Notes: a model not told the origin generated them from the letters alone. 64,000 nt of DNA from Candidatus Bathyarchaeia archaeon (GCA_049517415.1 JBEKSC010000002.1:1-64000); one strand, 5' to 3'. Shown: positions 31,009 to 50,079, counted from the first letter of the stretch. Numbers and translations: made by a program.

Positions 31009-31198
31009 TGGCGGGCCCGCCGGGATTTGAACCCGGGACCCTTCCCCAAGAAGGCTTCTCGGCCTGTTTCTTTTCGGGTGGCTTCCCATGGGTTCTAAAA
31101 GCCCAGAGGTAAAAGCATCACCGACACCTACCTGGCGTCTCCGATGCTCTACCTTTTCAGGATCCAATCTTGAAAGGATCTGACTGAGCTACGGGCCC
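31009..31198 (-). tRNA. tRNA-Lys(UUU) with four BHB introns (17/17a, 30/31, 37/38, 43/44)
   Basis: introns 31155-31181, 31117-31140, 31080-31109, 31042-31073; spliced 77 nt: GGGCCCG TA GCTC AGTCAGGTA GAGC A TCGGG CTTTTAA CCCGA GGGTC CCGGG TTCAAAT CCCGG CGGGCCC G CCA. Confidence 0.9.
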
Positions 31199-31250
31199 CG
31201 AACGTTCACAGCACGGACCAGTATCAAAAGCGTTTCGCACGTATGAAGTT

Positions 31251-32225
31251 CTATGATGTTGCTTCTCCGAGAATCACAGTTACGGTGCCTTGTTCGTTGT
31301 TGCGCCCGATCGAGAGTTCGATGTTCTCGCCGACCTTCTTGTTTTGAACAGAATGCTGCAATTCCTCCCAGCTCTTCAGCGGCTTTTTGTCGGCTTCTAG
31401 GATTACGTCTCCGGCGGATACGCCGCCCTGGTTAGCAGGGCTACCCCTCCCCACTTTGACAACCAATACGCCGTTCTCGCTTGGGATATCGTATGATTCC
31501 GCTATGGCCCTGTTCAGGGTTATACCTGAGATTCCTAAGTACGGCCGGACAACTCGTCCGTTCTGTAAGATTTCCTTCGCAATTCCCCTGGCCGTATTGA
31601 TGGGGATGGCGAACCCGATGCCCTGCGCAAATGGTATGTTCGCCGTATTAACGCCGATAACAGATCCCGTGCTGTCAACCAATGGGCCGCCGCTGTTCCC
31701 CGGGTTGATCGCTGCGTCGGTCTGAATCAAATCCTCATACATGTGATCCTCGATGTGTATGTGCCTCTTCAGCGCACTCACTACGCCAACAGTTGCAGTT
31801 GGCCCTGGAAGCAGGAACCCGTATGGGTTCCCAATCGCTATGGCAATCTGTCCAACGACTAGGTTGTCCGAATCTCCCAACTTCACCTTCGGCAGGTCTT
31901 CGCCGTCCACGCGAACAACTGCGATGTCGGACATGGCGTCCGAGCCTAGAACTTCGCCTTTGAATTTCTTGCCTTCAGTCGTTACGACTTCGACGCGCGA
32001 TGCGTCTTCAACTATGTGGTGATTGGTTAAGATTCCGCCGTTAGAATCGAATATTATGCCTGACCCTAAACCGCGTAATGGTATTGTGTCGTAGAAGTTC
32101 TCGCGAATCACGCGCAGAGTCGCCACAGTGACTACTGCGGGGCTGACTTTCTGGATAGCAGCAGTTACATCTTTCTCGTTAACAGGAATCAATTCCAATG
32201 ATACCTCAGAGCAAAATGAAAACAA
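31251..32225 (-). CDS. HtrA/DegP-like serine protease with PDZ domain, no TM
   Basis: LTNHH, IQTDAAINPGNSGG, PYLGI; true start probably slightly downstream. Confidence 0.92.
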   Translation of the reverse strand: MFSFCSEVSLELIPVNEKDVTAAIQKVSPAVVTVATLRVIRENFYDTIPLRGLGSGIIFDSNGGILTNHHIVEDASRVEVVTTEGKKFKGEVLGSDAMSDIAVVRVDGEDLPKVKLGDSDNLVVGQIAIAIGNPYGFLLPGPTATVGVVSALKRHIHIEDHMYEDLIQTDAAINPGNSGGPLVDSTGSVIGVNTANIPFAQGIGFAIPINTARGIAKEILQNGRVVRPYLGISGITLNRAIAESYDIPSENGVLVVKVGRGSPANQGGVSAGDVILEADKKPLKSWEELQHSVQNKKVGENIELSIGRNNEQGTVTVILGEATS

Positions 32226-32280
32226 CCGAGCTCTATTTAATGACTAAGTGATCATAAAACTAGACAAGAGGGCCAACGAG

Positions 32281-32421
32281 ATGGATGATGCGAAGTTCCT
32301 TAGGTGCGGAAAATGCGGTTACGAATTCCTTTCCAAAGCGTTGAACTCACCATGCCCTAAATGCAAGAGCCAAACCCTCGAAGAGAAAGACATGAAAACC
32401 TTGTCCGGTTTCAATGATTAG
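32281..32421 (+). CDS. 46-aa zinc-ribbon microprotein (not in the ORF track)
   Basis: MDDAKFLRCGKCGYEFLSKALNSPCPKCKSQTLEEKDMKTLSGFND*; two CxxC knuckles. Confidence 0.7.
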   Translation: MDDAKFLRCGKCGYEFLSKALNSPCPKCKSQTLEEKDMKTLSGFND

Positions 32422-32481
32422 ACAGAAGACTTTGCCCTAGCGTCCTGGCCTCTCTTTATTGTAGGAGTGCCGAACGCGGGT

Positions 32482-32586
32482 TGGCGCCCTTCGCCAGGAG
32501 AAGGCTAGGCTGCTCCTTTGGGCGGGATTCGAACCCGCGTCGACGACGTGACAGGCCGTCATCCTAGACCACTGAACGACCAGGGC
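32482..32586 (-). tRNA. tRNA-Asp(GUC) with a 29-nt intron in the acceptor stem (68/69)
   Basis: intron 32490-32518; CC-CGCC-CA|A-AGGAG...CTCCT-GGCG-AA|G-GG is a complete hBHBh'; splicing restores CCAGGGC-G-CCA pairing with 5' GCCCTGG. Confidence 0.92.
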
Positions 32587-32717
32587 ATCGGCACCCCAGA
32601 AATCGCTGTGCCAGCTTAAAGCCTTGCTACAACATATACGCGGAACAGAAAAGACGCCAAGCATATCTTACGGTGGTCTTCGCTAGGATGTGACGGCATA
32701 CGGACTCATATTTGGTT

Positions 32718-32819
32718 ATGCTGTTGGTCATAGTCGCGGTGCTGATCCTTGTACCGGTCATCGTAGCCTACGCACATGTTCGTCAACGCCTGCTCGAAAG
32801 AATCTTCAAGAACAGATGA
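32718..32819 (+). CDS. possible 33-aa single-TM peptide
   Basis: MLLVIVAVLILVPVIVAYAHVRQRLLERIFKNR*; hydrophobic helix with basic tail. Confidence 0.35.
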   Translation: MLLVIVAVLILVPVIVAYAHVRQRLLERIFKNR

Positions 32820-32821
32820 TT

Positions 32822-34543
32822 TCACGGGCGGGTTGTAAGGACCTTCGCGAAATCGTTCTCGAAATATTCATCTTTGTTCCTGGTTAGGGAACCTCTCTGG
32901 TCGGTTCCGAGTTTCCGCAGGTCTGTCCTCTTGATCTTCCCGCTCACGGTCTTAGGCAGTTCGCTTACGAATTGTATGATCCGCGGCCGTTTGTAGGGCG
33001 CCATGTGCTGCCTGGTGAAGTTGAATATCTCCAAGGCCAGTTCTCTAGAAGCAATCAAGTTTGGTTTTAGCATCACGTACGCTTTTGGAACGAACCCTCT
33101 CAACGGATCTGGACTTGCAACGACAGCAACCTCCGTAATGGAAGGGTGGACCAGAAGTTCGCTCTCCACTTCGAAGGCACTGATCCTATAGTCTGAGCTC
33201 TTGAACACGTCGTCGGCTCGACCTATGAACCAGAAGTAGCCTTCGGCGTCCCGTGACGCCAAGTCGCCAGTGAGGTACCAATCGCCGACGAAGACCTCCC
33301 GATTCTTCTCGCGCGGGTCGATATAGCCATTCATCACTCCGACCGGCCTTCGCGGCTTAACCCGAATAGCAAGAATACCATCGGTCTTTGGTGCAACGGG
33401 ATTATATTCATCGTCCAAGATTTCTACGTTAAACCCCGGAGCTACAACTCCCATCGAACCCAATTTGATCTTCATCCCTGGGAAGAAACCAACTGTTATG
33501 GTTGTCTCAGACTGTCCGAAGCCTTCTCGTATGGTAAGCCCAGTTGCGTCGTGCACTTTCTGGTTTATTTCTGGGTTCAATGGTTCGCCGGCGCTAATGA
33601 GTTCTCTGAGCGAGAAGTGGTAGTCCTTCAAGTTCTCCAAGAGTAGGAATCTCCATACGGTTGGGGGGGCGCAGAGGGTTCTCACGTCGTGGCTTTCAAT
33701 CACGCTTAGAACGCGCTTGGGGTCGAATTTTCCAGAGTAATTGTAGAGGAAACTTGTAGCTTCTGCGTTCCAGGCTCCAAAGATACTACTATACGCGTAC
33801 TTAGCCCAGCCAGGCGCACTGATGTTGTAATGTACATCTCCCCTTCTGGCTCCGATCCAGTACATGGTACTCAGGTGCCCAACCGGGTAGCTTCCGTGGG
33901 TTTGAAGAACAAGTTTGGGCTTCGCAGTCGTTCCCGATGTAAAGTAGATGAGGAGTTCGTCTTCGGGGCTAAATGTATCCTCGGTTCTAAAGTTTGCAGA
34001 CTGATCGTCTATCTCCGCATAATCTGTCCAACCATTCCAACTTCCTCCAACGCTAACCTTGGAGACAGATTCGGGAAGTGAAGCTGAATCGATTCTACTA
34101 GTCAGTTCAGCGCCGGTGAAGATGCACTTAGCCTTCCCCCTTCCAATTCTGTCTCGAATATCGTCGACCGTCAGTAGGGTGGAGGCAGGTATGATTACGC
34201 ATCCAGCTTTCATCGCCCCGAGGAAGACTTCGAACAATTCAACGGAACTAGGCATCATGAGCATGATTCGGTCCCTTCTCTTGAGCCCTAGGGTCATCAG
34301 GAAATTTGCTGCCTTGTTGGACCGTTCTTTCATCGCTTCAAAAGTGACCTTCGTCTCCGACCCTTTGTCGTCTACGTACATTAGAGCAGGGTTGGAACAT
34401 TGCCCCGCCAGTGTATCGAAGTAATCTAAGGCCCAGTTGAACTGATTCAGCTCTGGCCAGTCGAATCCAACCTTCGCTTCCTCGTAGTTGTGTGCGTTTA
34501 GGAGGAGATCTCGAGCTGCAGTGAATTCTTTTAGGCCTGTCAA
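32822..34543 (-). CDS. medium-chain acyl-CoA synthetase (AMP-forming)
   Basis: YFTSGTTAKPK, SAGEPLN, EGFGQSE, YLTGD, PKTVSGKI. Confidence 0.92.
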   Translation of the reverse strand: MTGLKEFTAARDLLLNAHNYEEAKVGFDWPELNQFNWALDYFDTLAGQCSNPALMYVDDKGSETKVTFEAMKERSNKAANFLMTLGLKRRDRIMLMMPSSVELFEVFLGAMKAGCVIIPASTLLTVDDIRDRIGRGKAKCIFTGAELTSRIDSASLPESVSKVSVGGSWNGWTDYAEIDDQSANFRTEDTFSPEDELLIYFTSGTTAKPKLVLQTHGSYPVGHLSTMYWIGARRGDVHYNISAPGWAKYAYSSIFGAWNAEATSFLYNYSGKFDPKRVLSVIESHDVRTLCAPPTVWRFLLLENLKDYHFSLRELISAGEPLNPEINQKVHDATGLTIREGFGQSETTITVGFFPGMKIKLGSMGVVAPGFNVEILDDEYNPVAPKTDGILAIRVKPRRPVGVMNGYIDPREKNREVFVGDWYLTGDLASRDAEGYFWFIGRADDVFKSSDYRISAFEVESELLVHPSITEVAVVASPDPLRGFVPKAYVMLKPNLIASRELALEIFNFTRQHMAPYKRPRIIQFVSELPKTVSGKIKRTDLRKLGTDQRGSLTRNKDEYFENDFAKVLTTRP

Positions 34544-34679
34544 ATTTGTCGTGCCCGAGTCGAATAGAGTTTCTTCTAAGGGTTGTTTTTGATTCCTCGC
34601 ATTAGCAAGAAGCTTGAGAAATCATTCATTGTCTCTAATCGTAAGTTGCTAAATATTGCAGCCGACATAGGCAAACAAA

Positions 34680-35165
34680 TTGGTTGAAGCTAGCTTGCCG
34701 AAGAAAACTTCGATCAGGAAGAGCAAACAGGCCACCGATTTCGCACTCGTGGACCATGCGGGGAGGTTGGTGAGGCTTCGTGATTTTCGCGGCAGGAAGG
34801 TTGTTCTCTTCTTCTATGTTCACGATGATACGCCAGGGTGTACGAAGGAAGCGTGCAACTTCCGGGACGGCTATGGACGCTTGAAAGCGAGGGATGTAGT
34901 GTTGCTAGGCATCAGCCCGGACCCGATAGAATCACACAACAATTTCGCGGACAAATACAACCTTCCGTATCCTCTGCTCGTTGACGCGAAGGCGGAGGTC
35001 GCAAAGAGGTTCGGCGTTTGGGGTAAGAAGAACATGTATGGCAGAACATACTTTGGAGTAATTCGCTGCACCTTCATCATCGACGAGACGGGTACAGTCG
35101 TGAAGGAATACAGGCGTGTGAAGGTGGATGGACACTTGGACCAAATTCTCAAAGACTTGGGATGA
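34680..35165 (+). CDS. bcp: peroxiredoxin Bcp/PrxQ
   Basis: TPGCTKEACNFRD, KNMYG. Confidence 0.92.
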   Translation: MVEASLPKKTSIRKSKQATDFALVDHAGRLVRLRDFRGRKVVLFFYVHDDTPGCTKEACNFRDGYGRLKARDVVLLGISPDPIESHNNFADKYNLPYPLLVDAKAEVAKRFGVWGKKNMYGRTYFGVIRCTFIIDETGTVVKEYRRVKVDGHLDQILKDLG

Positions 35166-35665
35166 CTCTTAGGGCAACCAGCCTCAGCAAGGTGGATCCC
35201 ATGGTAAACTTGGACGTCGCGTATGTCCCAACCCCCAAGGACATCGTTCGAAGGATGCTTAGGCTGGCAAGCGTACGTCGCGGTGAAACCGTTTTCGACC
35301 TTGGAGCGGGAGACGGCCGAATCCTGATTGAGGCAGTGAGAGGGTTTGGGGCACAAGCCATAGGAGTAGAGGTAGACCCAGAACGACTAGTTCGTATGAA
35401 AGAACGATTAACGGCGACGGGCACAGAAGCCACGGTGATTCAAGGAGATTTCATGGATGCAAACGTCTCATTGGCCGACGTTGTTGCTATCTACCTTTCT
35501 GATTCGGTCAACGCTAAGCTAGAATCAAAACTGAGGAAAGAGCTCAAAACTGGGGCACGGGTTGTCTCCTTAGATTATACCCTTCCAGGCTGGGTGCCAG
35601 AGAAGGAGTTGACGGTCAAAAGCGGCGGTATTTCGCGTAAAATATACCTATATAGGGTCGCGTGA
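35162..35665 (+). CDS. class I SAM-dependent methyltransferase (protein-lysine MT-like)
   Basis: YVPTP, DLGAGDGRI, GARVVS. Confidence 0.88.
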   Translation: MTLRATSLSKVDPMVNLDVAYVPTPKDIVRRMLRLASVRRGETVFDLGAGDGRILIEAVRGFGAQAIGVEVDPERLVRMKERLTATGTEATVIQGDFMDANVSLADVVAIYLSDSVNAKLESKLRKELKTGARVVSLDYTLPGWVPEKELTVKSGGISRKIYLYRVA

Positions 35666-35778
35666 AACGCGCGTGTACCATACCGTACAGGTATCTACAT
35701 AACTTACCCAGAGGGGGGCCGAAACTTGTAAATAAAGAAGCATGCTACGCTAGTATGTTAGCATGGGGGAGGTGAGAG

Positions 35779-35961
35779 ATGTTGTCTAAGTTCAAATTTC
35801 TCCTACCCGCAATAGTACTAATCATCGTAGTAGCGCTAATCCTGGCCTCAAGCAACGCTAGTTTCCTTACATTCTCGCACGCCTGGATCGCCAAGGCTCT
35901 ATTGGGTCAAGGTACTGGAGGCGGCGGTCACGGCATGGGTAGAATAATAGGGCATCATTAA
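35779..35961 (+). CDS. small exported/membrane peptide with Gly/His-rich tail
   Basis: GGAGGTGA SD, TATA-like TAAATAA upstream, signal-like N-terminus, ends GQGTGGGGHGMGRIIGHH. Confidence 0.6.
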   Translation: MLSKFKFLLPAIVLIIVVALILASSNASFLTFSHAWIAKALLGQGTGGGGHGMGRIIGHH

Positions 35962-36050
35962 GGCCCTAGAGAGAGGCCTCTAGTTCATTCTCCTCCCCTT
36001 TTTAGTGTAAATTATAAAGTTATTATACTTGCGGCGCCATTTCCGCTTAA

Positions 36051-37226
36051 ATGCGAGCAAGGATGCTAGCGACTGAGAAGGTAGGGCTCCTCCAAAGGCA
36101 CAAAATTGTCACGGAGATCATGAAGCAACTCGACCCTACAAATATCAAGATCCTTTCCACGATGTGGGAAACTGGCCCACGGAACCTTCTCGAAGTTTCT
36201 AGAAAAACTGGTATACCATTTACCTCTGTGTATCATCGTGTGGGCAAGATTGAGGCAAAGTCAAAACGCCTCGCCACTGTGATTCCGCAGGTTTCCAAAC
36301 TTGGAATGGTAAGGATTGCTCTTTTCACCGCTGCTAGACCAGGCTCCGAAGAGAGCGTAACTACTGCGCTGAAGATACCCAACCTTTGGCGTTCCGTGAA
36401 CCGTTGCGAAGGCGCCTTCACACACGTGTCAATTCATGTCGTCCCTGTACAATTCATGAAACATTTCAGGACATACCTGAAACGACTTTCCGAATCAGGT
36501 TTGATTAAACAGTCGAAAATGTTCCTTACAGGAGAATACATTCCTAACTTCCCAGCTTTCAAGTACTACGACCCGTCCTCTAATCAATGGACATTTGACT
36601 GGGAGCGCTGGTTGAACGCGCTCAAACGGGACCCCACCAAGACGATCGAAGACCCGGAAAGTTATGCTATGCTTGCAGACGAGAAAGACCTGCTAATTAT
36701 CAAGGAACTTGAGAAGAATGCGCGACAGAGCTTCGCGGAGATTGCGCCGCTCATGGGAATATCTTTGCAAGGCGTCAAGTACCATTACGACAAGAAACTG
36801 GTTCCATCTGAAATTGTGAAGTATGTTGGTTACGATGTCTGGCCGTACCCCGAAGAAGTGTCGGCTTATCATGAGATCTTCCTCAAGTTCACTAGCACAA
36901 TAGAGATGAACAGGTTCTATTCCTTAGTCCGTGAATTGTTCTTTGTACTTGGCGTCTCAAAAGTACTTCACGAGAACTCATTGATCGTGCGAACCTACAC
37001 GCTACAAAACCAGGTTTGGAGCATGTTCTCTTTCTTCTCACAAATGGCGAAGGAAGGGATAATCGAATCATATTCTTCTGTTAGGCAAGATTTCAGCGGC
37101 AGAGAGACACAATCAATATCATTTGAGCTCTTCGACAGCGAGAAAGGATGGACTTTCGATTTAGATAACTGCCTGTCAGATCTAGCGAAACTAACTCAAC
37201 TCGTCCCAGCCGTTCAAAAGGTCTAA
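36051..37226 (+). CDS. tandem Lrp/AsnC-like wHTH transcriptional regulator
   Basis: two HTH units (LDPTNIKIL...SVYHRV; DEKDLLIIKELEKNAR...GVKYHY). Confidence 0.8.
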   Translation: MRARMLATEKVGLLQRHKIVTEIMKQLDPTNIKILSTMWETGPRNLLEVSRKTGIPFTSVYHRVGKIEAKSKRLATVIPQVSKLGMVRIALFTAARPGSEESVTTALKIPNLWRSVNRCEGAFTHVSIHVVPVQFMKHFRTYLKRLSESGLIKQSKMFLTGEYIPNFPAFKYYDPSSNQWTFDWERWLNALKRDPTKTIEDPESYAMLADEKDLLIIKELEKNARQSFAEIAPLMGISLQGVKYHYDKKLVPSEIVKYVGYDVWPYPEEVSAYHEIFLKFTSTIEMNRFYSLVRELFFVLGVSKVLHENSLIVRTYTLQNQVWSMFSFFSQMAKEGIIESYSSVRQDFSGRETQSISFELFDSEKGWTFDLDNCLSDLAKLTQLVPAVQKV

Positions 37227-37229
37227 TGC

Positions 37230-37296
37230 TGGTCCCGCGGACCGGAGTTTCGTAGAGTTTAACATCGTTTCAGTCGCTCTAAGCCTAGTAGGCTGA
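37230..37296 (-). pseudogene. decayed partial duplicate of tRNA-Tyr
   Basis: 37230-37255 matches 37341-37366 at 24/26 nt (3' exon plus part of the 59/60 intron); AGCCTAGTAGGCTGA near 37282 matches intron sequence AGCCCAGTAGGCTGA near 37438. Confidence 0.65.
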
Positions 37297-37340
37297 ACTC
37301 CAAATCGCTTCGGACCAAGACCTAGTGTAAATGACTATTA

Positions 37341-37542
37341 TGGTCCCGCGGGCCGGAGTTTCATAGGGGTTTAGGCCCTATTTTGAATTCGCCGAGCCAG
37401 CAAGGGGCTCTCCAGCGACACTCCGGTGTCCGTTGTTAGCCCAGTAGGCTGACATGGGTACGCCTTGGGCGCACACCTACAGCGTCTCCGTCGCTCCGAA
37501 TAAGAGAGACTCGGAAGCTCTACCAGGCTGAGCTACCGCGGG
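37341..37542 (-). tRNA. tRNA-Tyr(GUA) with four BHB introns (30/31, 37/38, 53/54, 59/60)
   Basis: introns 37484-37511, 37428-37476, 37388-37411, 37358-37381; spliced 77 nt: CCCGCGG TA GCTC AGCCTGGTA GAGC T TCCGG CTGTAGA CCGGA GTGTC GCTGG TTCAAAT CCGGC CCGCGGG A CCA (C1-G72 and A73 Tyr identity). Confidence 0.92.
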
Positions 37543-37677
37543 ACTGATTCAAAACCTTCGCTCTGTAGCCTATAAGGTTTCATGAACCATACGCCGAACC
37601 ACCCGTCTTAGTGGTCCGAAAATACTCGCCCGGATTAAATCCCTGGAGGCATTCTCCTCCGCGTTAGGTTAGTTAGG

Positions 37678-38085
37678 ATGATATTCAAGCGATCTTTCCG
37701 TGTTCACTGGGTTGACACAGACACTGCAGGCGTCATGCACTTTAGCAACTTCTTCCGTTACTTCGAAGCTTGCGAAGAAGAATTCTATCGTTCCCTCTCT
37801 CTGCCGCTGACTGAGATCCACGATAGATTTGGTGTATTATTACCCCGCGTCGAGGCCCACTGTCAATACAAAGCCGCGTGCAGATTCGATGAGCTGATCG
37901 ATGTTACGTTGAAAATTCGCGAGGTCCAGAAGAAGGTCATCATCTACGATTTCCAAGTTATGCGTCAATCAGATGGAAAACTGGCGGCGGAAGGCTTCGT
38001 GAAATGCATTGCTGTAGATTCAGAATGGAAAGCCGTCTCCTTACCCGGTGAAGTCTCAAGAACAATTCGTAATAGCATACTCTAA
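37678..38085 (+). CDS. 4HBT/YbgC-like acyl-CoA thioesterase
   Basis: DTDTAGVMHFSNFFRYFE. Confidence 0.88.
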   Translation: MIFKRSFRVHWVDTDTAGVMHFSNFFRYFEACEEEFYRSLSLPLTEIHDRFGVLLPRVEAHCQYKAACRFDELIDVTLKIREVQKKVIIYDFQVMRQSDGKLAAEGFVKCIAVDSEWKAVSLPGEVSRTIRNSIL

Positions 38086-38128
38086 AGACTAGATCGTGGC
38101 TGAAACTATACAACGTAAGGGTTAGAAA

Positions 38129-38794
38129 CTATCGCTGCGACCGTCCACACTTCTCGCAGAAAATTAGATCCTTGGCATTCTTCTTGCCGCAGAATTTGCA
38201 TTTCCATCGGTCAGTTTGAGCTGAGATTGCGTCATGCTTTTTTCCGCCCCTGATTCCGAGCCAGCATAGGATGATTCCTATCAACAGGAACTCGTAGCCG
38301 GCGAACTCAATAATTGGATTCAGGAGCGTTACATTCTCGACGGTGTTTAAGCTAAAGATTACGACTCGGCGAGCCGTGTCCTCGTTGTCGAAGACGAAGT
38401 AATAAGTGCTGCTAGTTGTGGGTATGAAGGTGAAGTTGGAGGATATGACCGTCGGCCGAACGAGGATGATTGCGCTGGGCTTTCCTGCTCGCCATAGGGA
38501 GAAGTTCCCCTGATCCATCACGTAGAATGCTACCTCATGCCCATCGGAGACCTCCAATGCCCCTTCCACCTGGGTACCCCCTCTTAGGTCGGCCGAGAGT
38601 GAGGTGTAGTTTGTGGCTGGCACTGCGATGAGTGTCGGTGGTAGGATTGGGAGCAGAGTCTGAGCGTGCGATGCTAAACCGAAGGTCTGTGCAATTGGGC
38701 TGAGAAACAGTGGGCCCTGCTCAAGCGTGAACACTCCCGCTAGGAGTAGGAGCACGCCGATTGTCAAAACCTTTCTTCGCATCATCCTCACCAT
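38129..38794 (-). CDS. membrane protein with extracellular beta domain and C-terminal zinc ribbon
   Basis: N-terminal TM, YYFVFDN beta-strand motif, second TM, WKCKFCG...FCEKCG. Confidence 0.7.
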   Translation of the reverse strand: MVRMMRRKVLTIGVLLLLAGVFTLEQGPLFLSPIAQTFGLASHAQTLLPILPPTLIAVPATNYTSLSADLRGGTQVEGALEVSDGHEVAFYVMDQGNFSLWRAGKPSAIILVRPTVISSNFTFIPTTSSTYYFVFDNEDTARRVVIFSLNTVENVTLLNPIIEFAGYEFLLIGIILCWLGIRGGKKHDAISAQTDRWKCKFCGKKNAKDLIFCEKCGRSQR

Positions 38795-38834
38795 TATTCA
38801 GCTAGTTTAGTTGTTCCATCGCTCCTCGACAGGG

Positions 38835-38949
38835 TGGCGGGCCCGCGGGGATTCGAACCCCGGATCCCAGGCTTTCACCGCTTCCGCCCCGAAGGCTTAC
38901 ACGACTCTTACGCATCTCTGTGTCTTAATCCTGGCTCGACTACGGGCCC
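38835..38949 (-). tRNA. tRNA-Arg(UCG) with two introns (29/30, 37/38)
   Basis: introns 38897-38917 (ACAC/GTGT helix) and 38874-38888; spliced anticodon arm CAGGC CTTCGGA GCCTG; 79 nt mature. Confidence 0.9.
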
Positions 38950-39153
38950 TTGTTGCCGGCAGCCATAGACGAAGATTGGCGTATATGGTTAGCGAAACGC
39001 CCGTGGACCGAGCACGGGAAGCTTAGATTGCGGTCCCGGTAACATCGTATTGAAGACGATACCCCCCTCTGATATCCCTTCATGGAGAAAAAGGAATACT
39101 GTTAGGTACCATACGTCTATGCGTCGAACATGTGGTGAAAACAACTGCCCATC

Positions 39154-40431: not shown

Positions 40432-40472
40432 ACAAAGTTCGGACTTCGCTCGGCAACCAGCCCAGTTACGAC

Positions 40473-41772: not shown

Positions 41773-42336
41773 ATGGAGAACAACCTCGGCTCAACACCTC
41801 AAGCTCCCGCGCAGGTCCAAGAAAAACCGCCGTTTACCCCTTGGAACGCGGTGTCCGGTCCGCGTTTGGTATACATACCCTATAAATCTGAACTCATGGA
41901 GTTAAGGGACCGAGGATTTGGCGACCTCCGGAAGGACAAGCTTGTCCTTTCTCCGTACGAATCATTCTATCTTCTAGAGAAACAGAAGATTAGAGTGTTT
42001 GCCAAGGATGCAGGCCGGGAGTTGGAGCTTCGAGACTTAGTCCAGAAGTATTCAGTTGACAAACCCGAGATCTGGATCAAGTACTTGGTGTACCGTGACC
42101 TACGGGAGCGTGGGTACATAGTCCGTGAGTCCACTAGGGCCTTCGATTTTGACATTTACGGAAAAGGGCCGCTGAGGCGTTTAATCTCAATCGTATACGA
42201 AGGCGGCGAAGCGAGCCTTCGTAAATTAAGTAAACTGCTTCAATATTCTGACAAAGAGAAGAAGGAGTTGATACTAGCCGTCGTTGATAGGCGGACCGAT
42301 ATTGTGTACTATACGTTGAGTTCGTTGAATGTCTAA
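41773..42336 (+). CDS. endA: tRNA splicing endonuclease subunit, probably structural (beta)
   Basis: LSPYESFYL, YLVYRDLRERGY, LILAVVD...IVYY; the catalytic His after DFxxY is not evident. Confidence 0.85.
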   Translation: MENNLGSTPQAPAQVQEKPPFTPWNAVSGPRLVYIPYKSELMELRDRGFGDLRKDKLVLSPYESFYLLEKQKIRVFAKDAGRELELRDLVQKYSVDKPEIWIKYLVYRDLRERGYIVRESTRAFDFDIYGKGPLRRLISIVYEGGEASLRKLSKLLQYSDKEKKELILAVVDRRTDIVYYTLSSLNV

Positions 42337-42352
42337 CAACAGTTATTGTAGC

Positions 42353-42913
42353 CTACTGGGGCTGCCGCGCGTTGCAGTGGGGACAAATAAGTTCCCCACC
42401 TTGTAGCTGAGCACCGCACTGGACGCAGTACTTGACCTGAGCTACTCCTGTCCCGGGCTGGAGGATTGGTTGTGGTATGACAGCTTCGGCGCCACGATGG
42501 CGGATGGTTCCTCCTAGGGCTCCGCCGAAGGCACCAGCAACCAGATTTGTTAGCAAGATGAAAATGACTGCTTCCTGCAACTGCGATAACGGGGGGGTCG
42601 GCGTGTTTGGGATCGGTATTACTTCGAAGATTAGGAAGATTTGGGAGACGCCAAGGAAGAATGGTGCGTTGAGAATTCCTGCAAGGGCACCAGCCGCTGC
42701 TGCCTGACCAACCCTGCCGTAAAGAACGTATGCAGCGACAATTCCTCCAACGACTGCCCCTATCACTGTCGAGAATTGCAAATCAGTGATGCTTAAAACC
42801 GCGGATAGAAATCCGCCTACAATCAGGCCGCTCAACGTTGCAGCCCAGAGGTCTTTGCTTTTGGTGGACAAAGTAGTTCGAATTGCCAGAATTCCCGCTT
42901 CGCTATAAAGCAT
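42353..42913 (-). CDS. Gly-rich membrane protein with C-terminal zinc ribbon
   Basis: several TM segments; YCVQCG...CPHC. Confidence 0.7.
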   Translation of the reverse strand: MLYSEAGILAIRTTLSTKSKDLWAATLSGLIVGGFLSAVLSITDLQFSTVIGAVVGGIVAAYVLYGRVGQAAAAGALAGILNAPFFLGVSQIFLIFEVIPIPNTPTPPLSQLQEAVIFILLTNLVAGAFGGALGGTIRHRGAEAVIPQPILQPGTGVAQVKYCVQCGAQLQGGELICPHCNARQPQ

Positions 42914-42992
42914 TGTACCTTCGATGTCTCGAATTTAACTCACAACATTATAGGAGAGGCTCTCGCTACTGCGAAGGCTAGCGTGTTGAAAC

Positions 42993-44306
42993 TTGACCGC
43001 AAAAGCGTTCACGCTCCCGCGGGGCATTAGAGATACGGACTCAGTGGAGATGAATCAAAGGCTTTGGCTCTATGGTAAGATACGTGATGTGGTCCGCAGA
43101 TACGGGTTCCAAATGGTTGAACCTGCAACGATTGAGAACCTCAATACTCTTGAAGCCAAGAGTGGCCCAGCGATACGGAATGAGATTTACTGGTTCAAGG
43201 ATAAGGGCGGGAGAAGCCTTGGCCTTCGCTTCGACCTCACCGTCGGCATAGCAAGGATGGTCGCGAACCGATCCGACCTACCCGAGCCTATGAAATTCGC
43301 CACAATTGGCGGGAACTGGCGCTATGATGAGCCACAATACGGGAGATATCGCTACTTCACCCAATGGGACGTAGAAATCTTCGGCTCAGAAAGTCCTTTG
43401 GCAGATGCAGAGGTGATCTGTGTCGGGGCAGACATCCTAAGCAGCGTCGGGTTGAAAGACTGCATTATCAGAATTAGCAACAGGAAACTCACAGAAGCTT
43501 ACCTCAAGCAATTGGGCATCAAATCGGGCAAGAGACTGGATCAGTGCCTTAGGATCATCGATAAGCTCAGAAAGGCTAACCGCGAGCAACTGGAAAAAGA
43601 GTTCCAAGCTGCTAAGATCGGGAAAGAAGCAGTAAAGGAAATTTTCTCGTTCATCTCCCTGAACGGGTCTCCAGCAAGTGTCCTTGCGAAGCTGAACAGT
43701 TTCACTTTCACTGAAGAGAATGCCAAGAAAGGTTTGGAGGAGTTGACGAATCTAGCAGACGCCCTAGCATCATTAGGGCGTTTAGGGATCTGTGTATATG
43801 ACCTTAGCATAGTGCGCGGAATTGGATACTACGACGGAATTGTCTTCGAAGCTTTCGATAAGGGTGGGGAAGGCGTTGGCTCAATCTTCGGTGGCGGGAG
43901 ATACGACCGGTTGTGCAGAATATATGGAAAGCGTGACATACCAGCAACCGGCGTGGCGGGTGGGATCGAGCGCCTAATGATTTCACTGGAACGAGACAAC
44001 CTGTTTCCGAAGGGCCCTATGGGTGCCAAGGTCTTCATCGCTACGGTCCAAGAAGGCCTCAAGCACGAAGCAACGAAGCTGGCACAAAAGCTTCGAGATA
44101 ACGGAATCGCAACCGAGGTTGACTTGAAGACACGCCCTTTGGGCAAGCAGTTAGAATACGCGAACGCAGCTAAGATCCCATTCTTGATAGTGCTCGGCCC
44201 ACAGGAACTTCAAACCCAAACCGTCAAAGTTAAGGAAATGGCCACTCGAAACGAGATGCCCGTACCCCTCGACGCTCTTGTGGAAAAGCTCCAGTCTTTG
44301 AATTAG
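42993..44306 (+). CDS. hisS: histidyl-tRNA synthetase
   Basis: PRGIRD, LRFDLT, WRYDEPQYGRYRYFTQ, RGIGYYDG, GGGRYD, GIER. Confidence 0.96.
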   Translation: MTAKAFTLPRGIRDTDSVEMNQRLWLYGKIRDVVRRYGFQMVEPATIENLNTLEAKSGPAIRNEIYWFKDKGGRSLGLRFDLTVGIARMVANRSDLPEPMKFATIGGNWRYDEPQYGRYRYFTQWDVEIFGSESPLADAEVICVGADILSSVGLKDCIIRISNRKLTEAYLKQLGIKSGKRLDQCLRIIDKLRKANREQLEKEFQAAKIGKEAVKEIFSFISLNGSPASVLAKLNSFTFTEENAKKGLEELTNLADALASLGRLGICVYDLSIVRGIGYYDGIVFEAFDKGGEGVGSIFGGGRYDRLCRIYGKRDIPATGVAGGIERLMISLERDNLFPKGPMGAKVFIATVQEGLKHEATKLAQKLRDNGIATEVDLKTRPLGKQLEYANAAKIPFLIVLGPQELQTQTVKVKEMATRNEMPVPLDALVEKLQSLN

Positions 44307-44731
44307 TCGCCGCCGATGAAGACTTCTTTCTCATTGGACTGCAAGATTGCAGTTAGAGTTGCCCGTTCACCGACTAAATCTCGCATTGAAACAACTCCAA
44401 TTGGTTTCCCCTGCTCATCGACCACTACGACGTGTCTTATCCTATTCTTGTTCATCGCTTTGGCCGCCTCAGCCACGTCCGAGCTGGCTTTTGCGGTAAT
44501 AACATGTTTCGTACTCACTTCGTCCACTGCTGCGTTCAGCGTTTTTCCCGATGCTATGGCTTTCATTATGTCCCTTTCCGAGATTACGCCGACGAGTTTT
44601 GTTCCTTCTTTTGCGTCGCATATGACTAGGAGGCCCATGTTGTTGTCCACCATGAGTTTTGCTGCGTCGAGCATTGTCGTGCCCGAGGGAATCGCGACTA
44701 TAGGCCGTTGCAGAATATGCTCAAGCTTCAT
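44303..44731 (-). CDS. CBS domain pair protein
   Basis: GVISERDI, IRHVVVVD..GVVSMRDL. Confidence 0.9.
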   Translation of the reverse strand: MKLEHILQRPIVAIPSGTTMLDAAKLMVDNNMGLLVICDAKEGTKLVGVISERDIMKAIASGKTLNAAVDEVSTKHVITAKASSDVAEAAKAMNKNRIRHVVVVDEQGKPIGVVSMRDLVGERATLTAILQSNEKEVFIGGD

Positions 44732-45903
44732 GCTTGCTGATCCTCCTCTCTACCAAGCCTGGAACCCATCGGAGTATAAGGTAAACCTGTTTTCCCGATG
44801 TAGAGAGCTTTAGGTCGAATCAGCCTGTTAGCTTTCAAGTATTCAATTGAGTGCGCCGTCCAACCTGCAATTCTGCTCATCGCGAAGATCGGCGTGAACA
44901 GGTCAGTAGGGATTCCCAATATGTGGAAGACAATACCCGAGTATGAGTCAACGTTCGGAAAAATCGGTAAACCTGCAAGGTGTTTAAGGGCGCTGGCCTC
45001 AATCGCGCTGGCGGTATCAAATAACTTAGTCTGATTCCGCTTTACTGCAAGTTCCCCACCGAGTTTCTTGAGAATAACGTACCTGGGATCCCAAGTCTTG
45101 TACACTCGATGGCCAAAGCCCATGATCTTTTTCTTTTGAGCCAGAGCTTCAACAACATAGCCTTCAGCTCTGGAAGGGTCACCAACCTCGATGACCGTTT
45201 GGAGAGCAACCTCATTTGCCCCGCCGTGAAGAGGCCCCCTCAATGTCGCAATACCAGAGGTAATTATGGAGTACATGTCAGCCAAGGTTGAAGCCGTCAC
45301 CGTGCATGAGAAGGTTGATGCGTTCATTTCATGTTCCGCGTGGAGGATCAGAGCGACGTCCATGACATGGGCATCATATGGATCAGGCTCTTTCCCCGTC
45401 AGCATGTATAGGAAGTCTGCAGCGTGGCTCAAACCCTGCTTGGGTAAAACAGGGTCCTTTCGGTTTCTGATTCGGTCAAATGCTGCAATGATCGCTGGCG
45501 TTCTCGCTAAAATTCTGAGCGCCTTGTCGACTCGACCCTCGATGCTATCCGTCGTTGGTTGGGGGTCGTACAAGCCGAGGGCTGAAACTGATGTTCGCAA
45601 AACGTCCATCGGATCGCCTTTGATGGGAAGTGACAGAATTAATTGTGATATCTCAGGTTCAAGGGATCGATAAGATTCGATTCGCCCATTGAATTCTGCC
45701 AACTGGGATTTTGTTGGAAGCCAGCCGTATATTAGAAGGTAGGCAGTTTCCTCGAAGGTAGCATGCTCAGCCAAGTCTTCGATGCTGTAGCCTCTGTAGA
45801 AGAGTTTGCTGGCCTCACCATCAATGAAGCAGATCTTACTCTCCTTCACGTACACGTTGTCGAGCCCTTTGTGGATGACGACGGGTTCTCTTACGAGAGA
45901 CAA
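44728..45903 (-). CDS. gltA: citrate synthase
   Basis: LHAEHEMNAST, GPLHGGANE, MGFGHRVYK, PNVD. Confidence 0.95.
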   Translation of the reverse strand: MSLVREPVVIHKGLDNVYVKESKICFIDGEASKLFYRGYSIEDLAEHATFEETAYLLIYGWLPTKSQLAEFNGRIESYRSLEPEISQLILSLPIKGDPMDVLRTSVSALGLYDPQPTTDSIEGRVDKALRILARTPAIIAAFDRIRNRKDPVLPKQGLSHAADFLYMLTGKEPDPYDAHVMDVALILHAEHEMNASTFSCTVTASTLADMYSIITSGIATLRGPLHGGANEVALQTVIEVGDPSRAEGYVVEALAQKKKIMGFGHRVYKTWDPRYVILKKLGGELAVKRNQTKLFDTASAIEASALKHLAGLPIFPNVDSYSGIVFHILGIPTDLFTPIFAMSRIAGWTAHSIEYLKANRLIRPKALYIGKTGLPYTPMGSRLGREEDQQA

Positions 45904-45993
45904 TCTGACCTGAACGGGCTCCCACGAGGTTCTTTATACAAATTGCCCAGTACAGACAAGGGAGCCTTGAGGAGCCTTTGAGTGATTCAATGG

Positions 45994-46854
45994 TTAGACG
46001 ATGCTGATTGTGCCGTCTCCAGTGAACCAAAAGGGCGGACTGTAGACCGAATCAAGAGGATCGCTCGATTCCAACCTGCTGAAGGGCGAGACGGTATTGT
46101 ATACGGAAGCGAATACGGAATTGCCGCTTGCTAGGTAGTAGAACAGAGCGCCAGTCAAGTCGTCGATTTGTCCGAAAGCGAGGGTGATGCGTCCATTGCA
46201 AGAGATTACAGCCTTAACGCCTGCATTAATGAAATAGCTGGCAATGAGGACTGAATTTGATGACATCAACACTACCAATTTGACGTTCTCTAGAGAATCC
46301 GCCTGCAAATGTTCGCTCAGGAATTGAATACTAATGCCGAGGATTCCAGCATTCTGATTAACTCGCCCCTGCTCGAAGTCATCCGCGTATTTCCGTTCGG
46401 CAGCTAGATTGACGGTCTGTCCGACGTACCAGTAAGTTCTGTGTGCGAATGAATACGTATTCGTGCGCCAGACGATCACATCGTAGTTGTTCAGTTGAGT
46501 CGTGAGGAAGTCAAGTGTCACAGCAGAGCTGGAAAGGAAACTCACTTGATACCCAACGTGAGCTAAATCGTATTTGAGCGTCGTGGCATAGTAGCCCATA
46601 GGGGCTAGTGCATCGAGCGAAGAGAGGATCACGGCCTTGCGCTCTGGTTGGGCCTGAACCGGCGCGATCGCTACCAACGCCAATGAAACTAGGACCAACA
46701 TAAACGCAGCATGTAACCTTCGTTGCAAATTCCTACAGCTACGCGGCCACGAAGGATTCTGTGAGATAAAAGGTGCCTTAGCCAAGTGACAAATGCAAGT
46801 AAAAGACATGCCATAATTCTTTCCGGAGTTACTTCTAGAATGCAAGAACGCCAT
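45994..46854 (-). CDS. hypothetical secreted alpha/beta protein
   Basis: signal-like segment MLVLVSLALVAIAPVQA; real start likely downstream of 46854. Confidence 0.6.
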   Translation of the reverse strand: MAFLHSRSNSGKNYGMSFTCICHLAKAPFISQNPSWPRSCRNLQRRLHAAFMLVLVSLALVAIAPVQAQPERKAVILSSLDALAPMGYYATTLKYDLAHVGYQVSFLSSSAVTLDFLTTQLNNYDVIVWRTNTYSFAHRTYWYVGQTVNLAAERKYADDFEQGRVNQNAGILGISIQFLSEHLQADSLENVKLVVLMSSNSVLIASYFINAGVKAVISCNGRITLAFGQIDDLTGALFYYLASGNSVFASVYNTVSPFSRLESSDPLDSVYSPPFWFTGDGTISIV

Positions 46855-47253
46855 GGACGCGAGTACGACAATGCCTTCAGTTTGCCATCCGCTTTCCAGT
46901 CATTTCTCATTGCAAGGCCGCCATCGCGGCCAGAACGGTTTCTTGCCATTATCGTCTCTTGGGATAAATGTGAAATTCACTTACTGAAACGAATAAGCAA
47001 TAGCCGGATCACGACTAGGATGCTTCGCGAAAAATCGTGTCCCATGCGAGGTTGAATGTTCCAAAACACCAGTAAGCTGCTCCGTAGGCGTTGCTTAAGT
47101 AGGCTCCTCAAAAAGTGCAAATCAAACCGCCGAGGCATTTCCATCTCCATAGAATGGAGACATGGTGTTTCGGATTATGATTAATGGGTGCCCCTCCATT
47201 AGACTGAAACATTAATATACGTAAAATGGTACACCAGTGTTTCGGCGCCCGAC

Positions 47254-47733
47254 ATGTCCCAAGCTTTCACAACGAAACCCCTTACCACAGACAACGAGAT
47301 ACTTTGGGCAACCTTCACGCATGACCAAAGCCTCTTCAACGCCCCTCGACTCACAATAGTGCTACCAAACCACTTAACAGACCTAAGCCTGAACCTCGAA
47401 AAGCTCTCAAAGAAAATAACCGGCCGCATACCACTAATCGTCGGGGACTTCCTCGACAACCTGCTTTCTGTTTCATCGGCTCCAGCAGGGCTCTACTCCT
47501 TCCTTTGCAAACTCTTCACGGGAATTGGAACAAACGGGCAGACCGGTTTCTTCCTAGCGACAGAGGATATGCACGACTCAAAGAAAACTGCGATTCTCAA
47601 GAGATTCGCTGACGTTGTCATCGAATACCGGGCAATACAAGAAATAGCCAACTACCGGCTTGAGGCTCGAATCCTCGACCAAGCACAAAACCATTACAGT
47701 ACATGGGACAGCAGCGAAAACTCGGATTCATAA
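47254..47733 (+). CDS. RecA/KaiC-like ATPase-fold protein lacking Walker A
   Basis: DLSLNLEK..LIVGDFLDNLL...EDMHD...LKRFADVVIEY. Confidence 0.55.
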   Translation: MSQAFTTKPLTTDNEILWATFTHDQSLFNAPRLTIVLPNHLTDLSLNLEKLSKKITGRIPLIVGDFLDNLLSVSSAPAGLYSFLCKLFTGIGTNGQTGFFLATEDMHDSKKTAILKRFADVVIEYRAIQEIANYRLEARILDQAQNHYSTWDSSENSDS

Positions 47734-47866
47734 TATGAAGACCAACCTTTCCTAAGCAACCAGCTCTCTAAGATCGGGCGCCAGCCAAACCTCCTCCGAA
47801 AGCCTATCCCGGCTTGTTCTGAAGCTCCAAGCGCATCCTGAAGCTTCGAGAGAACTTTTCGGCCAC

Positions 47867-49603
47867 TCACGCGGTTCTTATCGAGGCTGCTTCCTCCAAC
47901 CCTAGTTCCTTAGTCGAAATCTCTCGCATCTTGAATTTTTGGACCTTCCCCGTAACCGTCATGGGAAACGTTTCTGTGAACTTGAAATATGCTGGAACCT
48001 TGAAGTAGGCAATTCTAGTTTTGCAGAATTCCTGCAACTCCTCGGCAGTGGCTGTCTCGCCCGGTTTCAACTTAACCCAAGCCATAACCTCTTCTCCGTA
48101 CTTCCGACTGGGAATGCCGATTACCTGCACGTCAGAAATCTTAGGGTGTGTGTAGAGGAAATCTTCCACCTCCCTGGGGAAAACCTTCTCTCCACCCCGG
48201 CTAATCATGTCCTTCGTGCGCCCAACAATGTTCACATAACCATTCGGTTGCATGAGTGCGAGGTCCCCCGTATGCATCCACCCCTCCCGGTCAATGGCTT
48301 CCCGCGTGGCTTCCGGATTGCTCCAGTACTTCAGCATCACGAGGTAACCACGTACGCAAAGCTCGCCAGCTGTCCCACGTGGGACGGTACGGTTGGTTAG
48401 TGGTTCAATGACCCTTGCTTCGACATGTGGAAGTGGGCGGCCGACCGTTGATACTCGAAGTTCCAAGGGATCGTCGAGCCGGGTTTGAAATGAAACGGGG
48501 GATGTTTCCGTCATTCCATAACAAATTGTGATCTCACGTATGCCCATGTCCGAGATGACTTTCTTCATGACCTCGACGGGGCACGGCGAACCTGCCATGA
48601 CACCAGTTCTTAGGCTTGACAAGTCGAATTGGTTGAAGTTGGGATCGTTCAGTTCGGCTATGAACATTGTTGGTACGCCGTGAAGCGCCGTACACCTTTC
48701 TTCCTCCACGGTCCGGAGCACGGTTTCTGAGCTGAAGGCATCTGACGGAAGAACCATGGTGGCACCGTGGGTTACGCACGCGAGGTTTCCTAACACCATG
48801 CCAAAACAATGGTAGAAGGGGACTGGGATGCATAGTTTGTCGTGGTGGGTAAATTTCATTTCTTCTCCGACGAAGAAACCGTTATTCAAAATGCCGTAAT
48901 GGGTTAGGGTTGCGCCTTTAGGAAAACCGGTAGTTCCCGAAGTATATTGAATGTTAATGGCATCATAACACTCAAGCATCCTTTCTCTCTCCTTGAGTTC
49001 CCGTGGGGAGGAGTTCATTGTTCCGATTTCTAGAAAACGCTCCCAGGAAAGCATTGAAGGCGGAGAAGGCTCCCCCCCATCGCTGAGTGTTACGATTCGA
49101 CGTAGAGCAGGGACTCGAGCAGCCTTGATTTCTTGGCCAGCTCCTATCTTCGGGAGCTTTCTGATTTCAGGTGCCAGTTCTGTTATCATCCAATGGTAGT
49201 CCGAGGTTTTGAATTGTTTGGCCGTTATGAGGAGGCTTATCCCGGATTGGTTCAGCGCATACTCCAACTCTTGAACTCGGTATGCGGGATTGACGTTGAC
49301 TAGGATCGCCCCAACCTTTGCAGTAGCGAACTGGGTCAGAACCCATTCCGCATTATTTGGCGACCATATACCAACTCGGTCTCCCTTCTGTACGCCGAAA
49401 CCAAGAAGCGCTACGGCGAACTCATCCACCCGCTCCTTCAGTTGGGCGTAGGTCAATCTCAGGCCCTGATGCCTAGAAACGAGCGCTTCTGCATCCTCAT
49501 GCCCCGAAACGACCTCGTCGAAGAGACGCCCAACGGTCTTTTCGATGAGAGGTTTCTCCGTTGGGCCGTGTTCGTAGCTTGGCTCGGGCCCCTTTTCCTT
49601 CAT
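47867..49603 (-). CDS. AMP-binding acyl-CoA synthetase (ACSF2-like)
   Basis: [37 protein letters not shown]. Confidence 0.93.
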
Positions 49604-49678
49604 TTGCGGTCGCGTGCCGTTTGGGGCTTGGTGTGAAAGAATAATTCTTGGTACCTTTACTAATTATGGTAAAATTCA

Positions 49679-49827
49679 TGGCGGGCCCGCGGGGATTTGA
49701 ACCCCGGACCTCTGTACCAGTGCTGGGCTGGTTCTACAGCTTTTTCCGGTGTTCCTTAGGGGGTTCGGCAACAAATTCCGCTTTATGTGCGGAGCCTGCC
49801 GCTCTATCCAACCTGAGCTACGGGCCC
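49679..49827 (-). tRNA. tRNA-Arg(CCU) with three introns (30/31, 37/38, 45/46); C at position 33
   Basis: introns 49764-49795, 49742-49756, 49710-49733; spliced arm GCAGC CCCCTAA GCTGT AGGTC; 78 nt mature. Confidence 0.85.
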
Positions 49828-49882
49828 AAGGGTGGAACGCGGCGGGTAAAGTAAAAGGATTAAGGCGCAGCGATTCGAAGAA

Positions 49883-49890
49883 GTTTAAAG
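49883..49890 (+). promoter_or_regulatory. TATA box of tRNA-Leu in the divergent tRNA promoter region
   Basis: TTTAAAG preceded by a purine-rich BRE-like stretch, about 30 nt before 49918. Confidence 0.6.
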
Positions 49891-49917
49891 AACCAATCGG
49901 ATTTCCTTTGTCTCTGT

Positions 49918-50079
49918 GCGGGGATTCCCGAGCCAGGTCAAAGGGGCAGGACCACCCGGCGCGGTGGGGCCACACTTAAGATCAGAACTTGCCTTGGGAG
50001 ATGAGGAGACATCCTGTGGCGTAGAGCCAGCGGATGGGCGCGTAAGCCTTCAGGGGTTCGAATCCCCTTCCCCGCACCA
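49918..50079 (+). tRNA. tRNA-Leu(UAA) with three introns (30/31, 37/38, variable-arm loop)
   Basis: introns 49951-49973, 49981-50010, 50025-50045; spliced CAGGA CTTAAGA TCCTG TGGCGTAGGCCTTC AGGGG TTCGAAT CCCCT TCCCCGC A CCA; 88 nt mature. Confidence 0.9.

Follow-up and report, generated by a model that had tools for sequence, protein, structure and literature searches.

Among archaea, transfer RNA genes carrying several introns are documented in the Thermoproteales and in Asgard lineages. The genes of Thermoproteales carry at most three introns, with a mean of 0.84 per gene, and Pyrobaculum calidifontis has 71 introns in 46 genes (PMC8450103); these introns fall into related families, which has been read as transposition (PMC4090602). 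In the Asgard groups Atabeyarchaeia and Freyarchaeia, 92–95% of the tRNA genes contain introns (bioRxiv 10.1101/2023.11.21.568159). A 2026 Asgard preprint puts the number of intervening sequences at 2.2–2.4 per gene and at most five in a single gene, and includes a minority of introns without a canonical motif (10.64898/2026.10.13.758758). Here we analyse a 64,000-nt stretch of DNA (the window; C2:1-64000) from a metagenome-assembled genome of an uncultured member of the Bathyarchaeia (2.65 Mb, 59 contigs). All six tRNA genes of the window are interrupted, by 17 introns of 15–49 nt at ten different positions. The phenomenon is known and the lineage is new to it; the density equals the highest published level, which is in print only for Asgard archaea.

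An initial annotation, made from the sequence by itself, had listed six interrupted genes out of six, 17 introns and ten positions, and all of these counts were reproduced by a cloverleaf program together with an alignment of orthologues (Table 1). Spliced in silico, all six sequences gave ARAGORN calls of full-length tRNAs that lack introns and have the expected anticodons. Their four stems are intact, and U8, A14, G18G19, G53, the T-loop and C61 are present; the exception is C33 in tRNA-Arg(CCU). The exons of all six genes are colinear within 105–202 nt, so the arrangement is neither split nor permuted, unlike that of the tRNA genes known from Nanoarchaeum, Caldivirga and Thermofilum whose exons are dispersed over several loci or stand in changed order. 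Self-splicing group I and group II introns have a ribozyme core of hundreds of nucleotides. An Rfam scan of the window gave no match to the group I or II families, and the introns are far shorter than such a core. No tRNA genes beyond these six were found in the window by ARAGORN, Rfam or our own cloverleaf program.

Table 1. Interrupted tRNA genes, their introns and two further features of the window. Positions are counted from the first letter of the window; gene lengths include the encoded CCA; n/4, base pairs formed in the BHB (bulge–helix–bulge) motif's central helix; h and h', flanking helices (bp).
Feature	Coordinates	Strand	Description
tRNA-Lys(UUU) gene	31009..31198	-	190 nt; 5 exons of 17, 14, 7, 6, 33 nt; 4 introns
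Lys intron 1, D-loop 17/17a	31155..31181	-	27 nt; 4/4, inner helix 5 bp
Lys intron 2, 30/31	31117..31140	-	24 nt; strict hBHBh' (4/4, h 4, h' 6)
Lys intron 3, canonical 37/38	31080..31109	-	30 nt; 4/4; outer helix 1 bp, 5 bp once intron 2 is out
Lys intron 4, 43/44	31042..31073	-	32 nt; relaxed BHB (3/4, h' 5)
tRNA-Asp(GUC) gene	32482..32586	-	105 nt; exons of 68, 8 nt; 1 intron
Asp intron, acceptor stem 68/69	32490..32518	-	29 nt; strict hBHBh' (4/4, h 2, h' 5)
tRNA-Tyr(GUA) gene	37341..37542	-	202 nt; exons of 31, 7, 16, 6, 17 nt; 4 introns
Tyr intron 1, 30/31	37484..37511	-	28 nt; strict hBHBh'
Tyr intron 2, canonical 37/38	37428..37476	-	49 nt; 4/4; 3' part unusually conserved in relatives
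Tyr intron 3, 53/54	37388..37411	-	24 nt; 4/4, h' 5
Tyr intron 4, T-loop 59/60	37358..37381	-	24 nt; 4/4; outer helix 0 bp, 5 bp once intron 3 is out
tRNA-Arg(UCG) gene	38835..38949	-	115 nt; exons of 32, 8, 39 nt; 2 introns
Arg-UCG intron 1, 29/30	38897..38917	-	21 nt; 4/4, h' 3
Arg-UCG intron 2, 37/38	38874..38888	-	15 nt; 3/4; outer helix 5 bp once intron 1 is out
tRNA-Arg(CCU) gene	49679..49827	-	149 nt; exons of 32, 7, 8, 31 nt; 3 introns; C33
Arg-CCU intron 1, 30/31	49764..49795	-	32 nt; 4/4; no inner helix beside bulge
Arg-CCU intron 2, 37/38	49742..49756	-	15 nt; weak BHB, 2/4; outer helix 5 bp once intron 1 is out
Arg-CCU intron 3, 45/46	49710..49733	-	24 nt; 4/4, h' 5
tRNA-Leu(UAA) gene, class II	49918..50079	+	162 nt; exons of 33, 7, 14, 34 nt; 3 introns
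Leu intron 1, 30/31	49951..49973	+	23 nt; 3/4, h 3, h' 5
Leu intron 2, 37/38	49981..50010	+	30 nt; 3/4; outer helix 6 bp once intron 1 is out
Leu intron 3, variable arm	50025..50045	+	21 nt; 4/4, h' 3
EndA paralogue, probably structural beta subunit	41773..42336	+	187 aa; both tRNA-intron-endonuclease domains; no catalytic His
Decayed duplicate of the tRNA-Tyr 3' part	37228..37340	-	directly downstream of the gene; no LAGLIDADG endonuclease gene in the window

The loci were read by hand and then with a cloverleaf dynamic program in which jumps were weighted by the local BHB geometry. This program gave the final structure for five of the six genes and was wrong for tRNA-Arg(CCU), where its reading (anticodon GTT) was built on non-conserved intron sequence; the CCU block is invariant in an alignment of 11 orthologues. 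When the BHB thresholds were relaxed, a depth-first search reached its node limit and returned alternative cloverleaves in numbers from hundreds to thousands (817 for Lys and up to 31,532 for Leu), and a fully motif-free cloverleaf program produced other, wrong decompositions for five of the six genes. Because of these results, a cloverleaf that appears after removal of BHB-like segments is by itself weak evidence. Only the BHB-weighted version, among the programs tried, agreed with the comparative data. An alternative reading, in which a fifth tRNA-Tyr 'intron' of 111 nt at 68/69 connects the gene with its downstream duplicate, was rejected because the duplication accounts for it.

The expectation that standard tRNA finders would miss or mis-call most of these genes held for ARAGORN and for Rfam/Infernal, the two covered here. 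With default settings, ARAGORN found one of the six genes (Asp) and placed its 3' end wrongly. Its intron mode reported five of the six loci, missing Tyr, and gave four of them an anticodon other than the derived one (Lys ctt, Arg gcg, Trp cca, Leu tag). The Rfam tRNA model reached its gathering score at two of the six loci and matched three loci in E-value mode.

Independent support for the gene structures came from relatives. A search with the histidyl-tRNA synthetase (HisRS) of the window gave 26 related loci, the close ones (49–96% identity) being mostly in Candidatus Bathyarchaeia or Bathyarchaeota records from peat and soil metagenomes; the organism is a member of the Bathyarchaeia of peat and soil. 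The exons of the six genes are 98.0–99.9% identical in the relatives and the introns 56–77%, and length changes occur only in introns. The exon/intron identities are 0.989/0.564 for Lys, 0.996/0.766 for Asp, 0.992/0.597 for Tyr, 0.994/0.635 for Arg-UCG, 0.999/0.663 for Arg-CCU and 0.980/0.640 for Leu. This comparison makes no use of the BHB motif.

Presence and absence of single introns mark the same boundaries. The Lys 17/17a intron is absent from four of seven relatives, exactly at the predicted positions. Among nine relatives, the Tyr introns are likewise precisely absent at 30/31 in two (L012, L013), at 53/54 in six and at 59/60 in one (L004). The Asp intron is present in all 12 loci of relatives; its length changes are confined to the loop, and paired changes keep its inner helix. 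A paired change across the intron was also seen in the variable-arm stem of tRNA-Leu in L005 and L007. The interrupted orthologues keep their gene neighbourhood in separately assembled relatives. Taken at the level of sequence, these data confirmed that the six loci are genuine tRNA genes, each of them interrupted.

We consider it very improbable, and close to refuted, that the six loci are decaying pseudogenes or relics and that working compact copies exist in other places, such as portions of the genome missing from the assembly. Room for such copies could be seen in the division of the assembly into 59 contigs and in the two anticodons, Gly-CCC and Leu-UAG, without a solution in our census (see below), and C33 in tRNA-Arg(CCU) could be taken as a sign of decay. 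Against it, the exons have stayed nearly identical while the introns diverged, splicing leaves all four stems and the conserved nucleotides intact, and every relative examined has the same interrupted genes. Intron-free copies of the six tRNAs, which the initial annotation had named as counter-evidence, were looked for with Rfam, ARAGORN and blastn of the spliced sequences, and none was found in the assembly.

The genome was assembled from a metagenome, and its marker genes give an estimated completeness of 100% and contamination of 6.9%, which might suggest that the interruptions stem from chimeric contigs, collapsed repeats or faulty binning. We regard the chance of such an artefact as negligible. 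The Asp and Tyr loci are matched with 0 differences by independently sequenced metagenome contigs (31368-33863, 35720-37597, 36638-37544), a 10-kb stretch was recovered in runs from 12 further studies after exclusion of possible sources, and the orthologous interrupted genes of the separately assembled relatives lie in the same neighbourhood. No RNA run came up among the sequencing runs found for this DNA. Apparent exon 'joints' in metagenome contigs were not used; they arise where tRNA contigs of other organisms cross-match exon sequence common to both, and the letters between the two sides are often different.

Having located the boundaries, we scored the BHB motif at each of them. The criterion was that the intron ends lie in two 3-nt bulges with a 4-bp helix (H) between them and flanking helices h and/or h'. 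The central helix is complete in 12 of the 17 introns and has at least three pairs in 16, where shuffling of the introns gives expectations of 0.43 and 2.9, respectively. This comparison is partly circular because the motif was used in choosing the boundaries. For the four introns that are defined by polymorphism the circularity does not apply, and all of them have 4/4 central pairs. The initial annotation had described the ends as BHB or relaxed BHB motifs, as we also found. The data support assignment of the introns, as judged from their motifs, to the archaeal BHB type that is spliced by EndA.

Some of the segments might instead be retained as expansions of the tRNA or be removed without EndA, the candidates being mainly Arg-CCU 37/38, Lys 43/44 and the cases with H = 3. 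Five of the 17 introns lack a full central helix, one of them having 2/4 pairs, and the Asgard preprint likewise has its minority without the canonical motif (10.64898/2026.10.13.758758). On the other hand, the segments lie in the anticodon loop or beside the anticodon stem, and the fold would be destroyed if they were retained there; the segments with weak motifs evolve like the other introns. Relaxed motifs are also known substrates of the two-subunit enzyme type (PMC4090602; PMC5829648). We therefore judge retention, or removal by another route, to be improbable and favour excision of all 17 segments by EndA.

The genome encodes the corresponding enzymes. PF01974 has two matches, which represent two EndA paralogues, and PF01139 (RtcB) has one. 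The EndA encoded on contig C10 (190 aa) has as its best match a solved tRNA-splicing endonuclease chain, 3p1z_B (E 7.5e-39, 179 residues aligned), with further matches to 3ajv_B, 2cv8_A and 2zyz_B. We take these four chains to be catalytic subunits from Aeropyrum, Sulfolobus and Pyrobaculum. Tyr, His and Lys are kept at the aligned catalytic places of the C10 protein, and an insert aligns to the extra loop of the solved chains, a feature tied to broad specificity in the crenarchaeal (alpha-beta)2 enzyme. It is thus predicted to be a catalytic alpha subunit with the Crenarchaea-type loop, and the paralogue in the window is probably a structural beta subunit. As a pair they would fit the (alpha-beta)2 type of broad specificity, a predicted heterotetramer. 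A two-subunit architecture of EndA has been tied to non-canonical and relaxed motifs (PMC4090602; PMC5829648).

The structures also suggest an order of events. In five genes, an anticodon micro-exon of 7–8 nt lies between an intron at 29–31 and the intron at 37/38. The outer helix of the 37/38 motif, which is the anticodon stem, grows from 1–2 bp to 5–6 bp after removal of the upstream intron. Since this helix exists only then, the upstream intron probably leaves first. By the same reasoning, the Tyr intron at 53/54 would precede the one at 59/60, whose outer helix depends on its removal. Such dependence of one intron on removal of another has been described for genes with two and three introns (PMC8450103). 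In the path that we propose, each gene would be transcribed as a precursor of 105–202 nt, the heterotetrameric (alpha-beta)2 EndA would cut out one to four short introns (15–49 nt) at their BHB motifs, first at 29–31 and then at 37/38, or in tRNA-Tyr at 53/54 and then at 59/60, and RtcB would join the exons. It is from the gene structures, motifs, conservation and presence of the enzymes that we infer the occurrence and order of splicing.

We then extended the analysis to the whole genome. Candidates had an intact T-arm or D-arm together with acceptor pairing, or, in later searches, acceptor pairing, U8 and CCA alone, and were scored by the same program. Most of these searches required CCA, so the census yields no genome-wide share of genes with encoded CCA. 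Scores separated well: at least 94 versus at most 78 in the first set, and in the last set at least 99 for the six new genes versus less than 88 for everything else. The reversed genome, as a control, gave 103 candidates versus 167 in the real one (candidate counts only). A second 'Arg-cct' (C17) and an 'Asn' (C10) called by ARAGORN, and an Rfam match at C11:15907, were discarded as noise, with scores of 69–85 versus at least 99 for real genes.

The census holds 44 tRNA genes with approximately 105 introns, ≈ 2.4 per gene. Interruptions were found in 43 of the 44, the sole compact gene being that for tRNA-Arg(CCG). Nine genes have one intron, 17 have two, seven have three, nine have four and one has five; the latter is tRNA-Trp (229 nt, C24:5192-5420). 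There is one gene per anticodon, except for three CAU genes, and the census is without a solution for Gly-CCC and Leu-UAG. Among the first 38 genes, the commonest intron positions are 37/38, 30/31 and 29/30, followed by 22/23 and 45/46. These genome-wide counts are estimates because the program is motif-based and mis-solved one of the six window genes and because the Glu-UUC solution is doubtful. Outside the window, 31 nt at C2:122837-122867 (-) match the 3' end of tRNA-Leu and may belong to tRNA-Leu(UAG).

Related genomes show a similar pattern. With the Rfam model, 12 same-genus genomes yielded 8–20 tRNAs each, almost all of which exceed 85 nt. The range is 12–31 for eight further families of the order, among them one (G019) that keeps approximately 12 compact genes. 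These counts indicate that the intron load is lineage-wide and strongest in the genus.

Taken together, it is very likely that these are working single-copy tRNA genes, the precursors of which would be spliced by an (alpha-beta)2 EndA and RtcB, and that this organization is genome-wide, common to the genus and present, to a lesser degree, in other families of the order. Several points weigh against this reading. The genome bin carries the estimated contamination given above, and position 33 of tRNA-Arg(CCU) would be C and not the U usual in a working tRNA. Strict hBHBh' geometry is found in only six of the 17 motifs, the rest being relaxed, and the 37/38 intron of tRNA-Arg(CCU) is weak, with 2/4 central pairs. 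The census program uses the BHB motif and failed on one window gene in six. Its solution for tRNA-Glu(UUC) places two introns both at 37/38, one of them without central pairs. Finally, the EndA subunits were assigned from sequence alone.

The system is most similar to that of the Asgard archaea. In both, nearly every gene is interrupted (92–97% in Asgard, 43 of 44 here), there are approximately 2.2–2.4 introns per gene and up to five in one, and the median intron is ≈ 22 nt. Both have many introns in the D-arm, at 29–31 and in the T-arm, two EndA paralogues, no detectable intron families, and genomes that come from wetland or peat soil. The Asgard figures stem from a motif-free census and ours from a motif-informed program, so that the two are not strictly comparable. 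The Bathyarchaeia differ in being a separate phylum-level lineage. With the Thermoproteales (Pyrobaculum, Thermofilum, Caldivirga; Sugahara 2007/2008, Fujishima 2010, cited in PMC4090602, PMC8450103) they share BHB and relaxed BHB introns, the positions 29/30, 30/31, 45/46, 53/54, 59/60 and others, an (alpha-beta)2 EndA (here predicted) whose catalytic subunit is closest to solved crenarchaeal chains, and motifs of which some form only after removal of a neighbouring intron. Unlike the Thermoproteales, the present genome has a higher load and no intron families that we could find, and it comes from peat rather than hot springs. In the red alga Cyanidioschyzon merolae, too, tRNA genes have several short introns each, spliced by protein and located at non-canonical positions, but in a eukaryotic nuclear genome that also contains permuted genes (PMC3728597).

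The initial annotation had given up to three introns per gene for the Thermoproteales and placed the load of this lineage at or beyond theirs. With four introns in two window genes, five in tRNA-Trp and the genome-wide average given above, the load does exceed that of the Thermoproteales. The figure of three agrees with the printed record for that order and is no longer the archaeal maximum, which stands at five in Asgard. A full-text literature search found no report on tRNA introns of Bathyarchaeia, although subscription journals and supplements may hold such data, and the name Bathyarchaeia has 0 occurrences in the accessible text of the Asgard census preprint (10.64898/2026.10.13.758758).

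These findings bear on annotation. A covariance-model scan recovers 8–20 tRNAs per genome of the genus where ≈ 46 are expected, and since so few are recovered, genome-quality calls based on tRNA counts, as well as anticodon inferences, go wrong for this group, which is abundant in soil and sediment. The extreme load of the Asgard families recurs here in another wetland lineage that is unrelated to them, and possible causes of intron accumulation (breadth of EndA, habitat or pressure by mobile elements) can be tested by comparing the two. Precursors with four or five introns and micro-exons of 6–8 nt are demanding substrates on which splicing order and the limits of EndA and RtcB can be studied.

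To examine where the introns come from, we aligned them locally, all against all. No excess over shuffled sequences was found: seven pairs scored at least 18, versus 4.0 expected, and none scored at least 20. The comparison covered 79 of the 84 introns then known, leaving out five of Asp, His and Ala-UGC, and preceded the discovery of 21 others. Because the introns show no similarity beyond that of shuffles, a recent spread of one mobile intron family is unsupported, and the 'invasion' suggested in the initial annotation is not borne out. The polymorphisms are better fitted by many separate gains and losses. Turnover is recent, since L004, the closest relative (HisRS 96% identical), lacks both T-arm introns of tRNA-Tyr; very recent gains or losses are visible between genomes at this distance. 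In three relatives (L009, L010, L014), tRNA-Leu(UAA) has a fourth intron (~19–22 nt) in its D-arm, which is absent from the window gene.

The tRNA-Tyr locus gives a hint as to how turnover may proceed. In L001, an open reading frame for a LAGLIDADG protein of 270 aa (PF14528, E 3.8e-6; L001:3601-4413, +) separates the tRNA-Tyr gene (L001:4414-4589, -) from an intact copy of its 3' part (approximately L001:3339-3450), and L008 has the same pair of 3'-part copies. In both, no 53/54 intron is present in the copy within the gene, whose 59/60 intron is different and belongs to the type found in L009, L012 and L013; the displaced copy carries a 53/54 intron of the window type. Because the two copies differ in their introns, the 3' half of the gene seems to have been replaced along with the endonuclease gene.

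Approximately 22 nt in the 3' part of the Tyr 37/38 intron (37428-37450) are conserved in all ten aligned genomes, far above other intron sequence. The duplicated 3' parts of L001 and L008 begin inside this stretch, and it could therefore be the target of the endonuclease or have a function of its own.

Homologues of the L001 endonuclease were present in 8 of the 41 genomes of the family that were searched. Seven of the eight loci (L046-L053) lie within ~420 nt of a tRNA gene, in three contexts: Tyr, His with Ala-UGC, and Glu-UUC. The homologue of the present genome (C9:47297-48283, -; 31% identity) lies between tRNA-His (47177-47288) and tRNA-Ala-UGC (48756-48867); it comes after tRNA-His, with a 12-nt direct repeat of the tRNA 3' end on its flanks. 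We propose, as a hypothesis, that endonuclease cassettes exchange intron sets; creation of introns is not implied. A wider and doubtful proposal, which we advance tentatively, is that the peat Bathyarchaeia are, beside the Thermoproteales and Asgard and independently of both, a third lineage with near-universally multi-intronic tRNA genes, in which turnover would proceed partly through LAGLIDADG homing-endonuclease cassettes that lodge next to tRNA genes and supply replacement 3' halves with another set of introns, as in L001. If true, this would provide a concrete route for exchange of introns between lineages, a point that the Asgard census preprint leaves open (10.64898/2026.10.13.758758), and it would be in keeping with a long-standing view in which conflict with elements aimed at tRNA genes shapes the interrupted ones.

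Two minor features of the tRNAs themselves were noted. All six window genes encode the 3' CCA (31009, 32482, 37341, 38835, 49679, 50077), and tRNA-His elsewhere in the genome does not. Uridine at position 33 of tRNA is near-universal. Both tRNA-Arg species that read AGA/AGG have C33, namely Arg-CCU (micro-exon 49757-49763) and Arg-UCU (this genome, G000; C1:94774-94896). Their anticodon loops start with CC, and C33 of Arg-CCU is kept in 11 of 11 relatives; U33 is retained in Arg-UCG, Arg-CCG and Arg-GCG.

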